From Nitrospirae bacterium UBA2233 (GTDB lineage Bacteria > UBA2233), in the NCBI GenBank assembly GCA_002347965.1, contig DDYN01000057.1, positions 11,365 to 75,364 on the forward strand: 64,000 bases of DNA. Reading direction: 5' to 3'. The notes under the pieces were generated by a model. It was not told where the DNA came from, made no database searches, and was given only the letters and a program-made list of their open reading frames with translations. The position numbers and the translations under genes were made by a program. Positions 5,004 through 45,644 of this stretch are shown in pieces; position 1 is the first letter of the stretch; each line of letters opens with the position of its first letter.

Positions 5004-5144
5004 CTAGGAAGGATAAGGATAATATCCACCTTGAGTACCTCCTAGAAGAGCCATACTGCCAAGAAAAGGAATGGCACTTATGAAGGCCAGCAAGAAACTT
5101 TCTGTAGACACCCACAAAGAACCAATTAAACCAAGAGTTAGCAT
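5004..5144 (-). CDS. Small hydrophobic 46-aa peptide (MLTLGLIGSLWVSTESFLLAFISAIPFLGSMALLGGTQGGYYPYPS) in a low-GC intergenic segment; candidate membrane peptide
   Basis: ATG at 5144 is preceded by GGGAGGAG at 6 nt spacing, and TAG lies at 5004-5006. The peptide is largely one predicted transmembrane helix. No homology is claimed. Confidence 0.3.
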   Translation of the reverse strand: MLTLGLIGSLWVSTESFLLAFISAIPFLGSMALLGGTQGGYYPYPS

Positions 5145-5555: not shown

Positions 5556-6329
5556 GTGGCCTCAAAACTGTCCTCTAAGGTGCAGCTTATTGCCATAGAC
5601 TTAGATGGGACGCTTCTTGACGGGGAAGGATCCCTCGATGCAGCGGCCTTGCCCCTTATTTCTAGCATCTTGAGCAGGGGGGCCTGTGTAACCCTGGCTA
5701 CAGGCCGCGACCCCCATAGCGCAACTCACTTAAGCAGGCCGATCACATGGAGCGCCCCGCTCGTGACCTGCAACGGGGCCGTTCTTTGGGATGTCGGCCG
5801 GCAAAGGCCTTTGATTAAGCGCACAATTCCTCTGGAGGCCGTCCGAAGCTGTCTTGGCTGCCTTCCAGAGTTTGGGCTTGTGCCTTTTGTCATGGAAATC
5901 ACCGCAGACCTCCGCTTCGTCGTCCGGCCAACAACCCAAGACGACAACTTCCACGAAGTCGTCAAACTCTACGCCTCCGGCGATGTTGCCAGCGTAGAAT
6001 CGGCCAAGGCCGAAATCAAGGCGCTCTTGGACGGCACCATTTACACGACCTCCTCGTTCCACGGCAACTTGGAGGTTTGTCCGGCGGGTGTAAGCAAGGC
6101 CTCCGGCCTGGATTCCGTGGCCAAGGCGTTGGGGATCCTGCCCGAAGAAATCGCCTGCATCGGCGATGGAGAGAACGACCTCGAGCTTTTTGGCTACGCG
6201 GGAGTCCGCGTTGCGATGGGGAACGCAATCGAGCCGCTCAAGGCCATGGCGGACTTCATTGCGCCCGCCAATACCGAGCATGGCGTGGCGGCGGCCCTCG
6301 CTTGGATCTTGTCGGCAACACAACCGTAG
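5556..6329 (+). CDS. Cof-type HAD-IIB family hydrolase (sugar-phosphatase-like)
   Basis: IAIDLDGTLL motif I near the N-terminus and IGDGENDLELFGYAGVRVAMGNA motif IV at the C-terminus. Confidence 0.8.
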   Translation: MASKLSSKVQLIAIDLDGTLLDGEGSLDAAALPLISSILSRGACVTLATGRDPHSATHLSRPITWSAPLVTCNGAVLWDVGRQRPLIKRTIPLEAVRSCLGCLPEFGLVPFVMEITADLRFVVRPTTQDDNFHEVVKLYASGDVASVESAKAEIKALLDGTIYTTSSFHGNLEVCPAGVSKASGLDSVAKALGILPEEIACIGDGENDLELFGYAGVRVAMGNAIEPLKAMADFIAPANTEHGVAAALAWILSATQP

Positions 6330-6436
6330 AATTTTCTCCTAGCCCCTGTTTCCCGTCTTTACGACAACCATCTCGAAGGGAGTATCCCGTGCTCATACAA
6401 AACGTAAGGTCGTCCGGGCAAAACGGAAACGACCTG

Positions 6437-9400
6437 ATGTCTAGGCTTACCTCTAACGCGCTGAAAGTTTTAGAAAAACGCTACCTGAAAAAAGACGAAA
6501 CAGGAAACGTTGTCGAGACACCATCCGAGCTCTTCGGGCGCGTGGCCGGAGCGATCGCCCAAGCCGAGGAGATATACGGGAAAGACCCGGGGGATGCCTA
6601 TCCAAGGTTCCTCGAACTCCTGACATCGCTTGATTTTCTCCCGAATTCGCCCACGCTGATGAACGCGGGCAGGCCTTTGGGCCAACTTAGCGCCTGCTTC
6701 GTCCTCCCCGTGGAAGACTCGCTGAACGGCATCTTCGAGACGGTGAAGCACGCCGCCCTGATCCACAAATCCGGCGGCGGCTGCATTGCCGGCGATGCTA
6801 GGGTCTGGAGCACGTTTTGTGGGCTGGAGCCTATCGAAGTGCTGTTCCATCGGACCACGGCGGACGGCCGCCCGGGCATCCGTCGCGGTTTTGGCGTCGC
6901 TTATGACGTGAACGACCTCAACATTCAGACCGCGGCCATGGACCCCGCCACTGGGTCCATGGGGTTGCGCAAGGTTACCCATGTCTGGAAGTTTGATGTC
7001 CCGGCTGCAGATCAAATGACGGTCCGAACGCGCGAGGGCACGGTCATCCAGACTAGCGCCTGGCATCCGTTCATGGTGCTGCGGGATACTGGCTTTGCCG
7101 AAGTCCGCGCTGATGAGCTCGCGCGAGGGGACGTGATCCTCGGACCGGACCGCCCGGATTCCTACTGGCCATGGTCTGAGTACCGTACGGCAGGCACTCT
7201 GACGATCGACCCCTGGATGGGCTGGCTCATCGGCTTTACCTTGGGCGACGGGTCGTTTGACTACGTGCCCTCTCTGAGGCAGTACAGGGTGCGTTGGTTC
7301 TCCGGCACCCGCGACGTGCTGGAGCGCGTGCAAGAGGTCCTGGCCTCGAGGGACATTCACGTCGCCATCCAGCGGGACAACCGGAGCACAGAAAGCTTTT
7401 TGCTGACTACCCTGTCTCAGCGGTTCGTGCATGACCTGCTGGAAGCCTGCGGGCTCGGCGCAATCGGCGTCAAGGAGGACCACATCCGGGTTCCAGAGGC
7501 TATCGCCAAGTCGCCCCTGCCGGTCGTGCGCGCGTTCCTTGCCGGGCTTCTGGACAGCGACGGCTACGTCGCCAAGGATGGCAGTCCGTCCTACTCCACG
7601 ATTTCGGAAGAGTTTGCCCAGGACTTGGCCGCGCTTGCCGCCCTGATGGGCTACCGTCCCACGGTATCCAAGGAGAACCCGCGGGGTAGGGGAAAGCGGG
7701 CGGTGTTCAACGTGCAGGTCTGTCCCCTGCCCCAAGTCCTGCAACTCGCCGACGACCTGCAAGTCTACCTGGCCAACCGCTTCCGGCTCGCCCGGCTCTC
7801 CACGGAGAGCACAAGAGAAACCGCGCTGCGACTCCCGTTACGGGCCTGGCGTGACCGGATGGCGGAGCTGGGGCTGGTCCGGCTAAGGGGTGATAAGTCA
7901 ACCGGACCCGGATCCTGCGCCGTAGAGCTTAAGCGATGGTCCTGCAACGCCAATCATCGCTGCCGCCGCGATGACCTGCGCACCATTGCCTCGCAGGTGC
8001 GGCTCCAAGACCCGGACCTGGCAGCGCTCATGGAGCGTGTCGCGGCACGCGGCCAGGAAATTGCTCGTGTAGGGCGGGCGACAACGCCCAAGCCCTACTA
8101 CGACCTTTCCGTGGAGGGTTGGAACACGTACGCTGCCGGACAGTCTGGCCTAGCCATGGTCCACAATACCGGGTTCTCCTTCTCGCGCCTAAGGCCCGAA
8201 GGAGACCTCGTCCACTCGACCAAGGGGGTGTCCTCCGGCCCGGTCTCGTTCATGGGCGTGTTCGATGCCGCGACCGACACGATCAAGCAAGGGGGGACAA
8301 GGCGCGGTGCGAATATGGGGATACTTAGGGTCGACCACCCCGACATCGAAGCGTTCATTGTCTGCAAGCGCGACGGCAAGCGGTTTCAGAATTTCAACAT
8401 TTCCGTAGCCATCACGGATGCGTTCATGGGGGCACTCGAGACGGGTGCCGAGTACGCGCTGATCAACCCCAGGGACGGCAGCGTCGTCCGGATGGAGAGT
8501 GCCAGGCGTATCTTCGAGCTTATCGTCGAGAACGCCTGGGCTACGGGAGACCCGGGCATCGTTTTTATAGATAGGGTAAACGCCAAAAACCCGACGCCCC
8601 ATGCGGGCCAAATCGAGAGCTGCAACCCCTGCGGCGAGCAGTTCCTTTTGCCCTACGAGTCCTGCAACTTGGGCTCGATCAACCTCTCCAACTTTGTCAA
8701 GGACGGCCGGATTGACTTCGGTAGGCTCCAGGGGGCCGTAGGGACCGCTGTCCATTTTCTGGACAACGTGATTGACATGAACCGCTACCCGCTGGAGGAG
8801 ATTTCCAGGGTAACGCTCGCGAACCGCAAGGTCGGGCTCGGTGTGATGGGGTTCGCCGACATGCTGATCCTTCTTGGCGTGCCCTACGACTCCCGGAGGG
8901 CGCTCGAGATCGCCGGCGAGGTGATGGGCTTTATCCACGAGGAGGCCGTCTTGGCATCCCGAAAGCTTGCCAAAGATCGAGGGCCTTTCCCCAACTTTGA
9001 AGGGAGCGTTTACAGCATCCCCCAGCGCAACGCGATGGTTACGACCGTCGCGCCGACGGGGACGATCAGCATCATCGCGGGGTGTTCTTCCGGAATCGAG
9101 CCTCTGTTCGCCGTCAGCTACGTTCGGAACGTGCTTGACGGCCATAGGCTGATCGAAGTGCACCCGGAGTTTGCGCGGATCGCCAAAGAGCGTGGGTTTT
9201 ACTCCGAAGCGCTCATGGAGAGGATCGCGTTCGAGGGTAGCGTTGCGCACGTCGAGGAGGTTCCAGAAGACGTGCGAGGGCTGTTCGTGTGCGCCCACGA
9301 CATTCCATCGGAACAGCATGTAAGGATGCAGGCGGCCTTCCAGGCGCACGTGGACAACGCCATCTCCAAAACGGTGAACTTTCCGTTCGAAGCGCCGCCG

Positions 9401-10003
9401 GAAGCCGTCGAAAAGGTCTACCTTTTGGCCTGGGAACAGGGCTGCAAGGGGGTAACGATCTACAGGGACGGCTCTAGGGAAGCCCAGGTGCTAGAGACGG
9501 GTAAGACGCGGGTTGTACGAGAGGGCGGGCAAGCGCCGCTAGTCCAAGCCAGACCAGCCAAGCGCAAGCGCCCCAAGGTCCTCAATGGGACGACGATCCA
9601 GATGGATACGGGCTGCGGACCGATGTACGTGACGATCAACGAGGACGAGCGGGGGCTATTCGAGCTGTTCAACACGATCGGAAAGGCGGGTGGCTGCGCG
9701 GCATCACAGTCCGAGGCGATCGGCCGTCTGGTATCGCTCGCCTGGCGGAGCGGGATTCCTGCGGAAGAAACCACCAAGCAGCTTATCGGAATCCGCTGCC
9801 ACAAGCCCGTCGGGTTTGGGGACAATCAGATTACCTCGTGCGCCGATGCTATCGCGAAGGCCGTTCTTACGCACTTGGGGGAAGACAAACACAAATATCA
9901 AGACCCTCCATCCTACGGTGCCTGCCCCGAGTGCGGAGGTACGCTCGAGCCAAAAGAGGGCTGCGCGACTTGCAAAGAGTGTGGATATTCTGAGTGCGAA
10001 TAG
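6437..10003 (+). CDS. nrdJ: Adenosylcobalamin-dependent (class II) ribonucleoside reductase NrdJ, intein-containing. Start chosen at [17 protein letters not shown]; an in-frame GTG at 6389 with a stronger SD is an alternative start
   Basis: N-extein ...[24 protein letters not shown]...IHKSGGG and C-extein [33 protein letters not shown]... reconstruct the class II RNR GGGTGFSFS core. The C-terminal Cys-rich tail CPECGG...[12 protein letters not shown] is present. The track ORF 6077..10003 includes a spurious 5' extension overlapping the HAD gene. Confidence 0.9.
   Translation: [1188 protein letters not shown]
6782..8167 (+). mobile_element. Intein (462 aa) with two LAGLIDADG-type homing-endonuclease motifs, inserted in the NrdJ GGG^TGFSF active-site region
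   Basis: Begins with Cys (CIAGDARV...) immediately after GGG and ends ...LAMVHN before Thr+1. Internal motifs are [11 protein letters not shown] and [11 protein letters not shown]. Confidence 0.85.
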
Positions 10004-31369: not shown

Positions 31370-31645
31370 TCATGGCAGCAAAAATCCGTTCAAAACGAGC
31401 GGGTTTTGGGGCGCGTTGACATCCAAAAAAGGCGTAAGGAGCACGTCGTCAACGTAGTAAACGAACCACTCGAAAAAAGGGAGATAGCCCATGCTAGGGA
31501 TGAGCAGGTCGTTCAAGAACGTACTGAGGCCGGTGCCGATCAGGTTGATTGAATCCAACATGGAGCCTAAGCTTGCCTGTATGAGGCTGCCCGAAGCCCC
31601 GAGGACGTCTGTCGAGGCTTGGCCGGATGCCGTGAAAATCTCCAT
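31370..31645 (-). CDS. Small (91 aa) hydrophobic/aromatic-rich protein of unknown function, translationally coupled downstream of pilC
   Basis: ATG at 31645 preceded by AAGGAG at 5 nt spacing. Shares FLN-type motifs with the two peptides at 41.5 kb. Confidence 0.5.
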   Translation of the reverse strand: MEIFTASGQASTDVLGASGSLIQASLGSMLDSINLIGTGLSTFLNDLLIPSMGYLPFFEWFVYYVDDVLLTPFLDVNAPQNPLVLNGFLLP

Positions 31646-40068: not shown

Positions 40069-40108
40069 CCTTCTTGTTTTTCGCAAGCAACGCAAGGTGG
40101 GGCATTTT

Positions 40109-40138
40109 GGAGGGTTACACGGCAAACCTCCATTTTTT
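40109..40138 (+). terminator. Rho-independent terminator of pfkA (GGAGG...CCTCC stem followed by TTTTTT)
   Basis: Read from the sequence. Confidence 0.6.
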
Positions 40139-40165
40139 AACAAGACAACGTTGAACCTTACAACA

Positions 40166-40194
40166 CGGGGCACGGAAATGTGAACCGTGCCCCG
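40166..40194. terminator. Perfect 10-bp stem hairpin (CGGGGCACGG-aaatgtgaa-CCGTGCCCCG) between convergent pfkA and the rhodanese gene; likely terminator for the minus-strand gene
   Basis: Read from the sequence. Followed on the minus strand by UGUUGU. Confidence 0.45.
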
Positions 40195-40224
40195 TGAAAA
40201 CGGCTGGTGCCTATTATCCGCCCA

Positions 40225-41517
40225 TCAATAAACCACGGGGAACCCGGCGGCCGTCCAGTTGGTCGTCCCGCCGATTAAGTCGTACACCTGCGTGAAGCCC
40301 TTATCGATGGCCATCATGGAAGCTTCCGCCCCCCTTGGCCCGTTGGCACACACAAAGCAGATCGGGGCGTTCTTGTCGAGCTCGCCGGAATCCAAAAACT
40401 GCTCGACGTCCTCACCGAGCTCGTGGAACTGGATCTTGGCAATATGCAGCCCGTTGTACTCGAGCGCACTGCGTACGTCCACGACGGTTAGGTTCGGATC
40501 CTCTCGCCATTTCTCGTAGAGTTGGCTTGCGATCCAAGAGTGCATGTACTTGCCCTGGATCCAGCCCGTATTGGCGTAGTTGACGATTCTGTTGACCATC
40601 TCGATCAACGTGGGCCCGAAGTTGGGCGCTGGTACCCAGTTTTCGGAATCCGGCGTAGACCCGCCGATCGCCCGGTTGATGCCGGCGGCCCTTCCTTGAA
40701 CGCCAAGGAACGTGTTCAGCGTTTGCTCGGCAAGAGCTTGGTCTTTGGTGTTGACGATTTTTGCGGATTTTTTGAAAACAAGGTCCGGATAGGCATCGGC
40801 TAGGCTAGGAGCGCTTTGGTAGCCGAAGGCATCCTCTGACTGGGCCACAATTTGGCCTTTTTGGTAGACAACCGGCGCTTGACCCTTGGTCACATCAACG
40901 CCTTGCAAAGACAAGGGCATGCCGGCCCCGATCCATTCTCCGATGCCTGAATTCAGGTAGTAAACGTTGTCGTAACCATACGTAACCGTATGGTAGCCCG
41001 CTACAAGGGCTCGAATCCCTCAAGCACAGATGAGAATTTCTGGCTTGTCGGGGTCGAGCCTGCCCGATTTCACGAACTCGTCGTACTCAGAAAGCGGGAC
41101 GTTGATAGAGCCCGGGATGTGCATGCCGTCGAACTCGGCCTTGGAGCGTATGTCAACGATCTGAACCTCTTGGCTTGACATCATCCTGCGCATCTGGGCC
41201 GCCGTTACCGGGTTTGCCGTTACGCCCTCGAGCTTTAGCTGTAAGGGCGGAATCGCGCCCTCCATCCAGTAGCGCATGCCTCCCATCAGGTACATGAAGA
41301 ACGCGCCCACGTCGGTCGTGGCGATCTGGTTGGGCGTGAAGGAGAACATGTTGCCCGCCAAGGGCACGAACAAGTCGGCCATCGGCTGGGTCAAGCCCCG
41401 GACCATCAAGTCGTTCCTCGTTACCTCGTGGGCGTTTGCTTTGGTCCCCACAAACGGGGCTGCGCTAAAGATAAGCGGCAGGCCTAAGGCCAGCGCCTTG
41501 AACCATCGCTTTCGCAT
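40225..41517 (-). CDS. Secreted two-domain rhodanese-like sulfurtransferase whose single reading frame is interrupted by an in-frame TGA at 41020-41022 (+ strand coordinates) inside the first CX2GXR loop; pseudogene, recoding or sequencing error
   Basis: Track ORFs 41020..41517 and 40225..40920 are in the same frame. Manual translation across the gap reads ...PEILICA*GIRALVAGYHTVTYGYDNVYYLNSGIGEWIGAGMPLSLQG... Domain 2 has an intact CANGPR loop. Confidence 0.6.
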
Positions 41518-41546
41518 GGCTCCTCCTTATTTTGGTTGATTCTTTC

Positions 41547-41678
41547 CTACACCAGGCTTGTCAGCGAGGTGCTGGTAGCCGGGAAAGAGTTCGACAAAAG
41601 ATGCACGAACGCGTTCAGAAAGGCATTTAAGAGCTCGCTCAAGAGTCCAGGGTCGATCGGGGCAGGTTGGAATCCCAT
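41547..41678 (-). CDS. Small 43-aa peptide (MGFQPAPIDPGLLSELLNAFLNAFVHLLSNSFPATSTSLTSLV), second gene of a two-peptide operon
   Basis: ATG at 41678 preceded by AAGGAGG at 8 nt; TAG stop. Confidence 0.45.
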   Translation of the reverse strand: MGFQPAPIDPGLLSELLNAFLNAFVHLLSNSFPATSTSLTSLV

Positions 41679-41685
41679 AGAAAAC

Positions 41686-41826
41686 CTCCTTATTTCAGCC
41701 CATTAAACTAGTAATCGGGCTCGTCAAAAACCCAGAGAGCTGATCGCTCACACCAAGAAGCCCGGGCAAGCTCGGGGCCAGGTTGTTGACGAAGAACTCG
41801 TAGACCGTGTTCAGGAACTCGGCCAT
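41686..41826 (-). CDS. Small 46-aa peptide (MAEFLNTVYEFFVNNLAPSLPGLLGVSDQLSGFLTSPITSLMG), first gene of a two-peptide operon
   Basis: ATG at 41826 preceded by AAGGAGGTG at 7 nt; TGA stop. Paralogous to the peptide downstream and to the 91-aa gene at 31370..31645. Confidence 0.45.
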
Positions 41827-41865
41827 ACCATTCACCTCCTTTTAGGCTTGTTTATTATTGTATGA

Positions 41866-41894
41866 AGCATACTAAAATTGCACGTTTCTGTCAA
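41866..41894 (-). promoter_or_regulatory. Sigma70-type promoter (TTGACA-17 nt-TATGCT) driving the two-peptide/rhodanese operon
   Basis: Minus-strand read: TTGACAgaaacgtgcaattttagTATGCT, about 35 nt upstream of the first peptide ATG. Confidence 0.5.
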
Positions 41895-42288
41895 AGTATC
41901 GCCGTAGAGTATCCAGTTGGCTCGACAAGGCATGGAAGGATTACGTTGAAGGACGGGTTTTGTTCGGACGAACGATCGTCAAAAGGCCTATCGTCCTCCC
42001 GCTCGGAGATACGGGAAAACACCGCCACCCTTACGCACCCTGTAGAAATGGATGGATACGAGCGCGACGATCACCAGCGGCAACAGGACAATATCAAGCA
42101 CATAGAAGCGGACAGGCGCAAGCGGGCGATGGCAACCGACAGGCCTGGCGTGATCATCGTAGTGGACTACGAAAAACGCATCGGCTGCAAGTACTTTATC
42201 GTTCCATGCCCTTACGGGGCGCGCTTGTCCGCAAAGGGGAGTTCTTCACGGGGAATTGGTAGTTTTCACTTTCTTTTTCTTCCGCTCC

Positions 42289-43797: not shown

Positions 43798-44646
43798 CTA
43801 TGGAGTTGGATCGTAGGCTTCAAAAGCGACGACGACGAGCGTGATGTTGTCGTGTCCCCCCCGGGTGTTGGCCATGTTTACGAGCTCCGTGGCGATAAGG
43901 GGAGCAATTCTGAGCCTGTTGGCCACGTAGGCAACCTCGCTCGGAGGAACGAGATCGCTAAGGCCGTCCGAACAAAGGACCAGGCAGCCCTCTCTAGGGA
44001 TCTCGAACACGCCCGTTTCGGGCTCGATCGTATCGGGGGGCGAGATGCCGAGCGCCTGGATAAGCACGCCCGTTGCCGGGTCTTCCTGCTCGTGGGCTAG
44101 CTTTATAGCCCCCGTTTCGTCTACCCAAAGCATGGCAGAATCTCCGACGTTCAAAAAAACGACTGCGTCGCCAACGACAAGCGCCAACACGAGCGTCGTC
44201 CCCATCATCCAAGCGGGCCTTTTGCGCCCAAGAGATATGTTTTCTTTGTAAATCTTGTAGGCAAGCCCAAAGCAAACCCTTCGGATGCGGTTGCCCACGC
44301 AAGCGGGAAGGCCCGGCTCTGGGCCTTTGAATACATCGAGGGGCTTGAGGAGAGCGTCGAGCAAAGGACGCTGAAGCTTGTTCGCTACCAAAGGCCGACT
44401 TGGTTCAGTGTCACCGAGCAGCGGGAACACCTCGGAAACCGGAAGGCCCTCTAGGTACTCCTGCCCCAGAATGGCGGCGCGCTCACCCTCGGGGTGCCCC
44501 CCAAGCCCGTCTAGCACGGCGTAGAGCCCAAGCGGCAGGATACGACTACCGTCGTCGAGCGTTCGAACAACGTATCGGTCCTCATTTTTCGCCCTGCGCT
44601 TGCCTTGGTCTGTCAAGCAGCTCGTCTGGATGCGAAACCGTTTCAT
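43798..44646 (-). CDS. PP2C-family Ser/Thr protein phosphatase
   Basis: KNEDRYVV and AVLDGLGGHPEGERAA metal-binding motifs. Confidence 0.8.
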   Translation of the reverse strand: MKRFRIQTSCLTDQGKRRAKNEDRYVVRTLDDGSRILPLGLYAVLDGLGGHPEGERAAILGQEYLEGLPVSEVFPLLGDTEPSRPLVANKLQRPLLDALLKPLDVFKGPEPGLPACVGNRIRRVCFGLAYKIYKENISLGRKRPAWMMGTTLVLALVVGDAVVFLNVGDSAMLWVDETGAIKLAHEQEDPATGVLIQALGISPPDTIEPETGVFEIPREGCLVLCSDGLSDLVPPSEVAYVANRLRIAPLIATELVNMANTRGGHDNITLVVVAFEAYDPTP

Positions 44647-45550
44647 GCCTGGAGAGGGTCAAGCCCGAGCGCCCGAACCATCCGAAGCGTCCTTGAGCCC
44701 TCTTGCCCCTTTGCCGTAAGGTAATCACCCAAGAAGGCCGAATCGGCAACGAGAAACCCGATAGGTTCGAGCGCGCCTAAGTGCAGCTCCCTTCCCGCCG
44801 CCAAACGGACCTCGGTAGCGGGCAAAAGAAGGCGGACAACGCATAGCACGCGAAGGCATTGTTCTGGGTTAAGAGGCGGCGCACCCTCCAGCGGCGTTCC
44901 CGGGATGGGGATCAAAAAGTTCACGGGGATCGCATCCGGCTTGAGTTCTGCAAGGTCTTGTAGCAACCCCGCGAGCTCTTTTAGACTCTCGCCCAGCCCT
45001 ACGATGAACCCGCAGCAAAGCTCGAGCCCTCTTTCCTTGACGCGCCTTGCCATTTGGAGCCTGTCTTCGTAGGTATGGCTCGAGCAGATCCTTGGGTAGA
45101 CCTCTCTTGGGGCGTTGAGGTTGTGGTTGATGCGGTCGAGCCCGCAGGCCTTTAAAAAATCGAGGGCGGCATCGTCTAGAAAGCCCGAGGAAAAGCAGGT
45201 CTTGAGGCCGAGGTCGCGCGCCATGAAAGAAACGGCCTCCCCAACCACTCGCAAATCGGCCTCTACGGCACCCCGCCTGGCGATCGCCATGCAGAAGCGG
45301 TAAGCCCCGCTTGCCTGCGCCTCTTTGGCGCCGGCGATGAGCTCGCTTGCCTTGAGCGGCGCCGAGGGCGTGACGGGCGTAGGGAACTTAGATGACTGGC
45401 CGCAGTAGGAGCAATCCTCGCTGCATCCGCCCTTCTTGGCGTTTTCTAAGACATGGAGCTTGAAGCTGTTCCCAAAGTGCGCCCTCCTTAACCGGATAGC
45501 CTCTTTGAGGATGGGCTTGAGCGGCGTTTTTGGGTCCAGGAGGTTTTCGA
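44643..45550 (-). CDS. bioB: Biotin synthase-like radical-SAM protein; 5' end uncertain because the open frame runs into tRNA-Leu
   Basis: CSEDCSYCGQS radical-SAM motif and INHNLN...GFIVGLGES BioB-like core. No canonical start codon was found downstream of the tRNA 3' end. Confidence 0.7.
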
Positions 45551-45556
45551 TAAAGC

Positions 45557-45644
45557 TGGTGCCGAGGGCCGGAATCGAACCGGCACGGAGGAATCCCCCG
45601 AGGGATTTTAAGTCCCTTGCGTCTACCTGTTCCGCCACCCCGGC
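45557..45644 (-). tRNA. tRNA-Leu (anticodon TAA), class II long variable arm, CCA encoded
   Basis: Manual fold: acceptor GCCGGGG/CCUCGGC, anticodon arm AGGGA-CUUAAAA-UCCCU, T-arm CCGGUUCGAUUCCGG. Confidence 0.85.

Follow-up and report, generated by a model that had tools for sequence, protein, structure and literature searches.

In the pspABCDE operon of Escherichia coli, small non-enzymatic proteins (PspB, PspD) are encoded upstream of, and co-transcribed with, PspE, a rhodanese that carries a signal peptide. Tandem small-protein genes of another kind encode the PSM-beta peptides (phenol-soluble modulins) and the enterocins L50A and L50B, which are leaderless helical peptides of ~43-44 amino acids (aa), each translated from its own ribosome-binding site. 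Here we describe two tandem genes for peptides of comparable size, P1 and P2, which directly precede a rhodanese gene in a 64,000-nucleotide (nt) stretch of DNA from Nitrospirae bacterium UBA2233 (contig DDYN01000057.1, positions 11,365 to 75,364 of the forward strand; the whole stretch is hereafter called the window). Two further systems invite comparison with this locus. A rhodanese-related sulfurtransferase appears in surveys of prokaryotic selenoproteomes (PMC1794560, PMC9312934), and the extHIJKLMNOPQS genes of Geobacter, which have been linked to reducing selenite and tellurite, include one for a rhodanese-like protein; sulfur respiration there depends on MccSep, the product of ExtKL, which is a polysulfide reductase with selenocysteine (PMC5877670, PMC13510729).

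P1 and P2 share with PSM-beta and L50A/L50B the tandem arrangement of leaderless helical peptides with one ribosome-binding site each. Unlike them, however, they are anionic, contain no Lys or Arg, and come without an exporter, immunity genes or a Pfam match. L50A and L50B are also close paralogues, whereas P1 and P2 hardly resemble one another, and the host is an uncultured, Gram-negative-type member of the Nitrospirota. The likeness to pspABCDE lies in the layout, with small non-enzymatic proteins encoded upstream of a signal-peptide rhodanese in what is predicted to be the same transcript, and does not extend to sequence similarity. PspB has a transmembrane segment that P1 and P2 lack, no homologues of PspA, PspC or PspF are encoded nearby, and the rhodanese of the window is a two-domain, presumably selenocysteine-containing protein. 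The NCBIfam matches of this rhodanese to PspE are weak (E = 7.5e-6; for PspE itself, see PMC2593051).

P1, P2 and the rhodanese gene are predicted to form one transcription unit of three cistrons with its own strong promoter (Table 1), because the gaps between them are short and no terminator was predicted between P1, P2 and the rhodanese gene. The stop codon of P1 is separated from the ATG of P2 by 16 nt, within which lies the Shine-Dalgarno (SD) site AAGGAGG, and the 29-nt gap between the P2 stop codon and the rhodanese ATG likewise contains AAGGAGGAG. The SD sites of P1 and P2 both stand 6 nt before the respective ATG. In a consensus scan, the sigma-70-type promoter on the minus strand (TTGACA-17-TATGCT) matched at 10 of 12 positions; the region holds two promoter-like sites, as compared with 1.1 expected from shuffled sequences. 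The distance from the end of the -10 element to the P1 ATG is 40 nt. L017 and L018, which are divergent relatives, have the same two hexamers at the same distance from the P1 ATG, although their spacer carries three substitutions and the flanks are also substituted; the SD-like sites are kept in the divergent relatives as well. In the lineage of L006 and L013 the upstream region is different; it has an SD site of its own and promoter-like sites other than these. The peptides are thus predicted to be expressed from the conserved promoter and co-transcribed with the rhodanese.

An earlier note on this DNA, made from its letters and open reading frames (ORFs), had proposed a near-consensus sigma70 promoter, a strong SD site for each of two tiny translated ORFs, and an AT-richer operon upstream of the rhodanese gene. 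This layout is correct, and conservation in relatives strengthens it; the GC content is 0.46-0.52 over the peptide genes vs 0.55-0.62 in the flanks. Two of its figures needed correction, since the second ORF starts 16 nt, not 5 nt, after the first ends, and the peptides are each 43 aa long instead of ~45. A 46-aa form of P1 initiated at a GTG codon was considered and rejected, as this GTG falls within the SD site and is ACG in L018.

Table 1. Positions of the features discussed, numbered from the first letter of the window
Feature	Position	Strand	Details
Sigma-70-type promoter	41866..41894	-	-35 TTGACA 41894-41889; 17-nt spacer; -10 TATGCT 41871-41866
P1 gene with SD site	41695..41841	-	SD AAGGAGGTG 41841-41833; ATG 41826; TGA stop 41697-41695; ORF 41826..41695; product MAEFLNTVYEFFVNNLAPSLPGLLGVSDQLSGFLTSPITSLMG
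P2 gene with SD site	41547..41691	-	SD AAGGAGG 41691-41685; ATG 41678; TAG stop 41549-41547; ORF 41678..41547; product MGFQPAPIDPGLLSELLNAFLNAFVHLLSNSFPATSTSLTSLV
Third cistron, tandem-rhodanese gene	40225..41528	-	SD AAGGAGGAG 41528-41520; ATG 41517; 430 sense codons; in-frame TGA 41022-41020 between ORFs of 165 aa (41517-41020) and 231 aa (40920-40225)
Candidate SECIS-like hairpin	40975..40994	-	ACCAUACG-GUUA-CGUAUGGU; 8-bp stem, starting 25 nt past the UGA
Relic of a cytochrome b (ExtP-like) C-terminus	41988..42101	-	within the 390-nt spacer (41895-42288) that lies upstream of the promoter
Stretch downstream of the rhodanese gene	40069-40224		
91-aa acidic protein	31370-31645	-	between PilC-like and prepilin-like genes; no Lys, Arg or His
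46-aa Lys/Arg-free ORF	5004-5144	-	MLTLGLIGSLWVSTESFLLAFISAIPFLGSMALLGGTQGGYYPYPS; ribosome-binding site GGGAGGAG
Ribonucleotide reductase large-subunit gene with intein	6077-10003	+	
tRNA-Leu(TAA)	45557-45644	-	
BioB-like radical-SAM protein, longest ORF	44643-45638	-	

To assess the coding status of the peptides, we counted substitutions by the Nei-Gojobori method between the window and the most divergent loci, L017 and L018. Against L018, P1 differs by 16.8 synonymous and 4.2 non-synonymous changes, corresponding to proportions of changed synonymous sites (pS) of 0.54 and of changed non-synonymous sites (pN) of 0.043 (pN/pS 0.08), and P2 by 18 and 7 changes, respectively (pS 0.56, pN 0.072, pN/pS 0.13). 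The ratios are as low as those of the neighbouring enzymes compared with the divergent loci, namely the rhodanese (90.5 synonymous and 43.5 non-synonymous changes; pS 0.31, pN 0.044, pN/pS 0.14) and an aldo-keto reductase (57.5 and 24.5; pS 0.16, pN 0.022, pN/pS 0.14). The result for P1 is free of selection bias because P1 was not the query that retrieved L017 and L018. Among 13 variants of P1, 30 of the 43 positions are invariant. The five variant clusters of P2 are 86-100% identical, with residues 16-27 and 29-33 invariant and L28 varying. Exact-sequence look-ups revealed that gene callers already call both peptides as "hypothetical protein" on many public metagenome contigs. Judged by this pattern of substitution, P1 and P2 are genuine protein-coding genes under purifying selection.

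P1 and P2 were seen only in one lineage of the Nitrospirota, in metagenomes, where homology searches and cluster look-ups returned ~13 distinct variants of P1 and 5 clusters of P2. Proteins encoded next to them bear NCBI names taken from metagenome-assembled genomes of "Nitrospirota bacterium". When 1.84 billion cluster representatives were searched with P1 by full HMMER, its own cluster was retrieved along with three long repeat proteins, which we judged spurious, as their scores are sums of weak repeats. A word-index search with P2 found just its 5 clusters, all at 86% identity or more. Two scans of the GTDB species representatives, one with the rhodanese as query and the other with the P1 alignment, returned nothing, JGI metagenome contigs added only two further loci, and neither peptide was found on viral contigs. 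Neither P1 nor P2 had a match in Pfam, NCBIfam, PHROGs, PADLOC, PDB sequence profiles, or a Foldseek search against the PDB; even with E relaxed to 10, hmmscan of Pfam-A gave no family for either, the Staphylococcus haemolytic/PSM-beta family included. P1 and P2 are outside every described family; lineage-specific mini-proteins heading an enzyme operon are a familiar phenomenon.

In all covering loci (L001-L008 and L013-L021), P1, P2 and the rhodanese gene are contiguous and in the same order. The rhodanese gene is the sole constant neighbour of the peptide genes, whereas the flanks change. Upstream lies either an aldo-keto reductase gene (window, L001-L005, L015, L017-L020) or a divergent Ext-type cluster (L013, L014, L022). 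In the latter, the ExtI porin scored 478.7 bits (cut-off 150) and the ExtM cytochrome 840.5 (cut-off 800), whereas an ExtH-like rhodanese stayed under its cut-off (168.6 bits vs 200); Rieske and cytochrome b genes are found alongside. The cluster, located at 564-7614 of L013, in L014, and at 4165-9074 of L022, also holds a 74-aa protein and an ExtN-like multihaem cytochrome. The peptide operon of these three loci is thereby divergent from ExtH-like, ExtI, ExtM, Rieske and cytochrome b genes. The cluster is homologous to that of Geobacter for selenite/tellurite reduction and polysulfide respiration, but P1 and P2 are homologous to no Ext protein in NCBIfam.

Downstream of the rhodanese gene, three arrangements were found, a variation at the level of strains. 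The first has a phosphofructokinase (PFK) gene (window, L002, L007), which in the window is convergent and directly follows the rhodanese gene; in L002, an IS605-type OrfB and a resolvase are inserted nearby. The second (L001, L006, L008, L013) comprises a PhsA-like molybdoenzyme, an iron-sulfur (FeS) subunit, cytochrome b, a 115-aa protein in whose sequence three CxxCH haem-binding motifs can be read, and Rieske and cytochrome b genes. In the third (L017-L020), a split-Soret-like cytochrome is accompanied by Rieske and cytochrome b genes. Across these contexts, the trio of P1, P2 and rhodanese is a stable core in variable islands for sulfur/selenium respiration, which in relatives are of the Ext type. 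The window is without Ext genes save the cytochrome b relic upstream of the promoter, which matches the cytochrome b C-terminus of L013 with 13/27 identities in BLASTP (E = 6e-7 as a single comparison) and includes HFYRVRKGGGV. A weaker, 4Fe-4S-like relic lies on the opposite strand of the same spacer and is called as a 56-aa gene in relatives. In the window strain, the trio persists under selection though the respiratory genes have been lost.

The earlier note had correctly placed a rhodanese gene downstream of the peptides, but what it described is, as far as its sequence tells, a UGA-interrupted selenoprotein gene that extends over both annotated ORFs. The two ORFs are in the same frame with nothing but a TGA codon to separate them, and translation across it reads ...PEILICA-[TGA]-GIRALVAGYHTVTYGYD..., giving the motif ILICA-U-GIRAL. 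The same codon is TGC (Cys) in L006, L013, L014 and L015, and Cys is found in P0165; these genes encode single proteins of 431-433 aa. Sequence past the TGA is conserved, both halves are in frame, and each half contains a Pfam Rhodanese domain. Because the in-frame TGA aligns with Cys in relatives, we read it as selenocysteine. The most likely product of the gene is a tandem rhodanese of 430 residues that has a signal peptide and, in its active-site loop, Cys-Ala-selenocysteine. In public annotation the gene stands as two entries, a "hypothetical protein" and a "rhodanese-related sulfurtransferase", and the ORF list divides it likewise. A hairpin resembling a selenocysteine insertion sequence (SECIS) is present in all selenocysteine and Cys variants, but its conservation is not independent evidence because the stem also encodes the conserved HTVTYGY; its local fold is unexceptional (z = -1.27). 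The hairpin is compatible with a bacterial SECIS, though not decisive. No tRNA for selenocysteine was found within the 64-kb window.

The N-terminus of the rhodanese, MRKRWFKALALGLPLIFSAAPFVGTKANA-HE, resembles a signal peptide by inspection. It begins with MRKRWFK in the window, MRRKWLR in L013 and MKGRWLK in P0165, so that a twin-arginine motif is not conserved. Against the NCBIfam model NF041203 ("rhodanese_LYCAU rhodanese-related (seleno)protein"), the protein scored 69.6 bits vs a cut-off of 115; by this score it shares the CAU motif of the family but is not an equivalog. Like the rhodanese-related selenoproteins, it has Cys-Ala-selenocysteine in the active-site loop, and selenocysteine and Cys interchange among close relatives. 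Unlike the NF041203 family, it is much larger (430 aa), carries a signal peptide, and has in addition a novel N-terminal region of 70 residues as well as a second rhodanese domain of the Cys type. By these features, the seleno-rhodanese presents itself as a new, larger relative of a known kind of selenoprotein.

AlphaFold2 models P1 as a helix of residues 2-24, a turn, and a second helix of residues 27-42, with a mean predicted local distance difference test score (pLDDT) of 75. In the P2 model (mean pLDDT ~75), a coil or extended segment (residues 1-9) precedes a helix of residues 10-31 (pLDDT ~90) and a short helix of residues 35-42. Hydrophobic residue pairs recur every four positions (LLxxLLxxFLxxFVxLL), and the maximal hydrophobic moments of 0.34-0.46 indicate moderate amphipathicity. 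The net charge is -3 for P1 and -2 for P2, and neither contains Lys, Arg or Cys. No 43-46-aa form of P1 or P2 has Lys or Arg; in P0044, P0057 and P0058 these residues occur only in N-terminal extensions, which we take to be mis-called starts. The maximal 19-residue Kyte-Doolittle means (1.0 for P1 and 1.3 for P2) are below transmembrane grade. Neither peptide has a signal peptide or a double-glycine leader (GG, GA, GS), for which the earlier note had asked for a search, and a GxxxG motif is absent from both by reading, P1 having just GLLG (GxxG) and P2 nothing of the kind. Of its suggestion of small membrane or regulatory proteins, the transmembrane part therefore falls with these low hydropathy maxima, but a regulatory or accessory role stays viable.

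P1 and P2 have also been held to be paralogous, and related to a 91-aa protein of the pil cluster. Residues 1-21 of P1 align with residues 13-33 of P2 (BLASTP adds one residue) in the pattern xExLNxxxxxFVxxLxxSxP. The match is weak, with a BLASTP E of 0.004 as a single comparison, p = 0.018 in a composition-preserving shuffle test (1.8% of the shuffles score equally well), and an hhalign probability of 8.6%. One weak 21-residue motif is thus common to both peptides, but paralogy is not established; the match is suggestive, without proof, of an old P1-P2 duplication. The relationship with the 91-aa protein did not hold, the shuffle tests giving p = 0.64-0.70, tblastn no match, and hhalign 0.2% for both peptides. 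The three proteins share composition only, their window copies being acidic, rich in Leu, Ser, Asn, Phe and Pro, and without Lys or Arg. A conserved orphan family is also what the 91-aa protein represents, for which 16 clusters were found (69% identity or more).

Our preferred reading, which we hold with middling confidence, is that P1 and P2 are small helical, lineage-restricted accessory proteins of a rhodanese-centred module, the accessory role being what we infer. The peptides would be abundant and, without a signal peptide, cytoplasmic. They are modelled to fold as amphipathic helices, a helix-turn-helix for P1 and one long helix for P2, and would act jointly, probably assembled into a small helical hetero-oligomer. 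In an accessory or partner role to the rhodanese module, they may escort or stabilise the rhodanese precursor, or dock the rhodanese at the membrane or a respiratory complex. A bolder version, which we regard as doubtful, would see in them acidic helical mini-proteins of a new class, devoid of Lys, Arg and Cys, that form a heterodimeric bundle and partner a periplasmic seleno-rhodanese in Ext-type sulfur/selenium respiration, whether by escorting the seleno-precursor, by docking the enzyme to the membrane complex, or by handling hydrophobic S(0) or Se(0).

Several points speak against such a partnership. No homologue of known function was found, so that the functional reading draws on gene linkage, and a physical or functional partnership with the rhodanese would follow from that same linkage. 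The distant rhodanese homologues L023, which follows a PhsABC-like cluster, and L024 are without comparable upstream peptides; the partnership, if real, would be recent and lineage-specific. Furthermore, export of the rhodanese probably follows the general secretory (Sec) pathway, because the twin-arginine motif is not conserved. As Sec substrates cross unfolded, the signal-less peptides could not simply ride with the enzyme to the periplasm. Their contacts would be confined to the precursor or to the membrane's cytoplasmic face, and readings as regulators, as escorts, or as peptides with an unrecognised export route consequently stay live. Co-export as "hitchhikers" of the twin-arginine translocation (Tat) pathway was also considered and was down-weighted, since the motif varies among variants.

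One such reading, which we think unlikely, takes P1 and P2 as small regulatory proteins that modulate a sensor, a transcription factor, selenocysteine insertion or secretion, thereby tuning expression of the rhodanese or of the respiration island instead of binding the mature enzyme. Proteins this small often modulate larger ones, and the predicted cytoplasmic location of the peptides next to an exported enzyme, together with their retention in a window strain that is without the downstream respiratory genes, would fit such a function. Yet no regulator gene is consistently adjacent, nothing specific indicates a target, and expression signals as strong as those found here suggest abundant stoichiometric proteins instead.

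That P1 and P2 are exported leaderless amphipathic peptides with an extracellular action seems improbable to us as well, whether they are pictured as surfactant- or PSM-like, cytolytic or bacteriocin-like, or as wetting or mobilising agents for the hydrophobic elemental sulfur or selenium that would feed the Ext-type respiration module. Known leaderless bacteriocins are strongly cationic, whereas both peptides are anionic and free of Lys and Arg, their hydrophobic moments are just moderate, and no Pfam family matches them, the Staphylococcus haemolytic/PSM-beta family included. What invites the comparison is the size, the tandem layout shared with PSM-beta and enterocin L50A/B, and the very strong expression signals of a leaderless helical ~43-aa pair. 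No immunity gene, ATP-binding cassette (ABC) or C39-peptidase exporter, or modification gene was found among the called genes and Pfam domains of L001, L013, L017/L018 and the window, which cover the three contexts. The same points, along with the lack of double-glycine and GxxxG motifs, count against the two-peptide bacteriocin or pheromone of the earlier note. The setting in sulfur/selenium respiration, for which insoluble substrates are a known problem (PMC13510729), would nevertheless suit a mobilising agent.

We give still less credit to P1 and P2 as precursors of ribosomally synthesized and post-translationally modified peptides (RiPPs), in which a conserved helical leader would precede a Ser/Thr-rich C-terminal core. 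P2 does have a near-invariant central helix and a varying Ser/Thr-rich C-terminus (PATSTSLTSLV, PQASGSLAGLA, PTASTSLTSLV), but its N-terminus is as variable as its C-terminus, and the C-terminus of P1 is conserved. Tandem precursor genes after a strong promoter are typical of RiPP loci, and a radical-SAM (S-adenosylmethionine) gene lies 3 kb upstream in the window; its product is, however, a BioB-like BATS-domain protein, and L013, with its Ext-type context, does not have it. Across contexts, the peptides are not linked to any modifying enzyme, protease or exporter. Neither peptide contains Cys, and among the precursor families of NCBIfam there is no match.

Leader peptides, a candidate role in the earlier note, or upstream ORFs acting by translation to control the sulfurtransferase, or chance ORFs in a structured 5' leader, hardly deserve credence although the ORFs stand directly upstream of the enzyme gene on the same predicted transcript. 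Against L018, synonymous changes predominate overwhelmingly along the entire length of both peptides. The fold of the leader RNA does not surpass that of shuffled sequences (z = -0.26), neither a terminator nor an antiterminator is present, the ORFs contain no regulatory run of Cys, Met or selenocysteine codons, and Rfam gave no family, whether at its gathering threshold or with E relaxed to 10. A candidate attenuator hairpin within P2 (the palindrome GAACGCGTTC and a U-rich stretch, terminator-like in L017) was rejected, because its nucleotides are not conserved in L001.

Elsewhere in the window, we noticed a 46-aa ORF without Lys or Arg in an AT-rich spacer adjoining the methylase gene of a type I restriction-modification system. 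The gene for the large subunit of ribonucleotide reductase contains an intein with a LAGLIDADG homing endonuclease (Pfam Intein_splicing and LAGLIDADG_3). The longest ORF for the BioB-like radical-SAM protein overlaps at its 5' end with a gene for tRNA-Leu(TAA), and the true start of this protein is thus probably further downstream; the NCBI protein has 310 aa, as compared with 331 aa for the longest ORF.

Proteins of fewer than 50 aa are routinely overlooked, and the comparative evidence for P1 and P2 shows that they are real and at least as conserved as the adjacent enzymes. The annotation error that splits the seleno-rhodanese is inherited by metabolic reconstructions of the lineage. If P1 and P2 are true partners of the rhodanese, they would provide an entry to the maturation or positioning of such enzymes. 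The understanding of electron and chalcogen trafficking in the Ext-type system has just begun (MccSep, 2026), and the peptides, if this partnership is true, would be a new small-protein component of chalcogen respiration.

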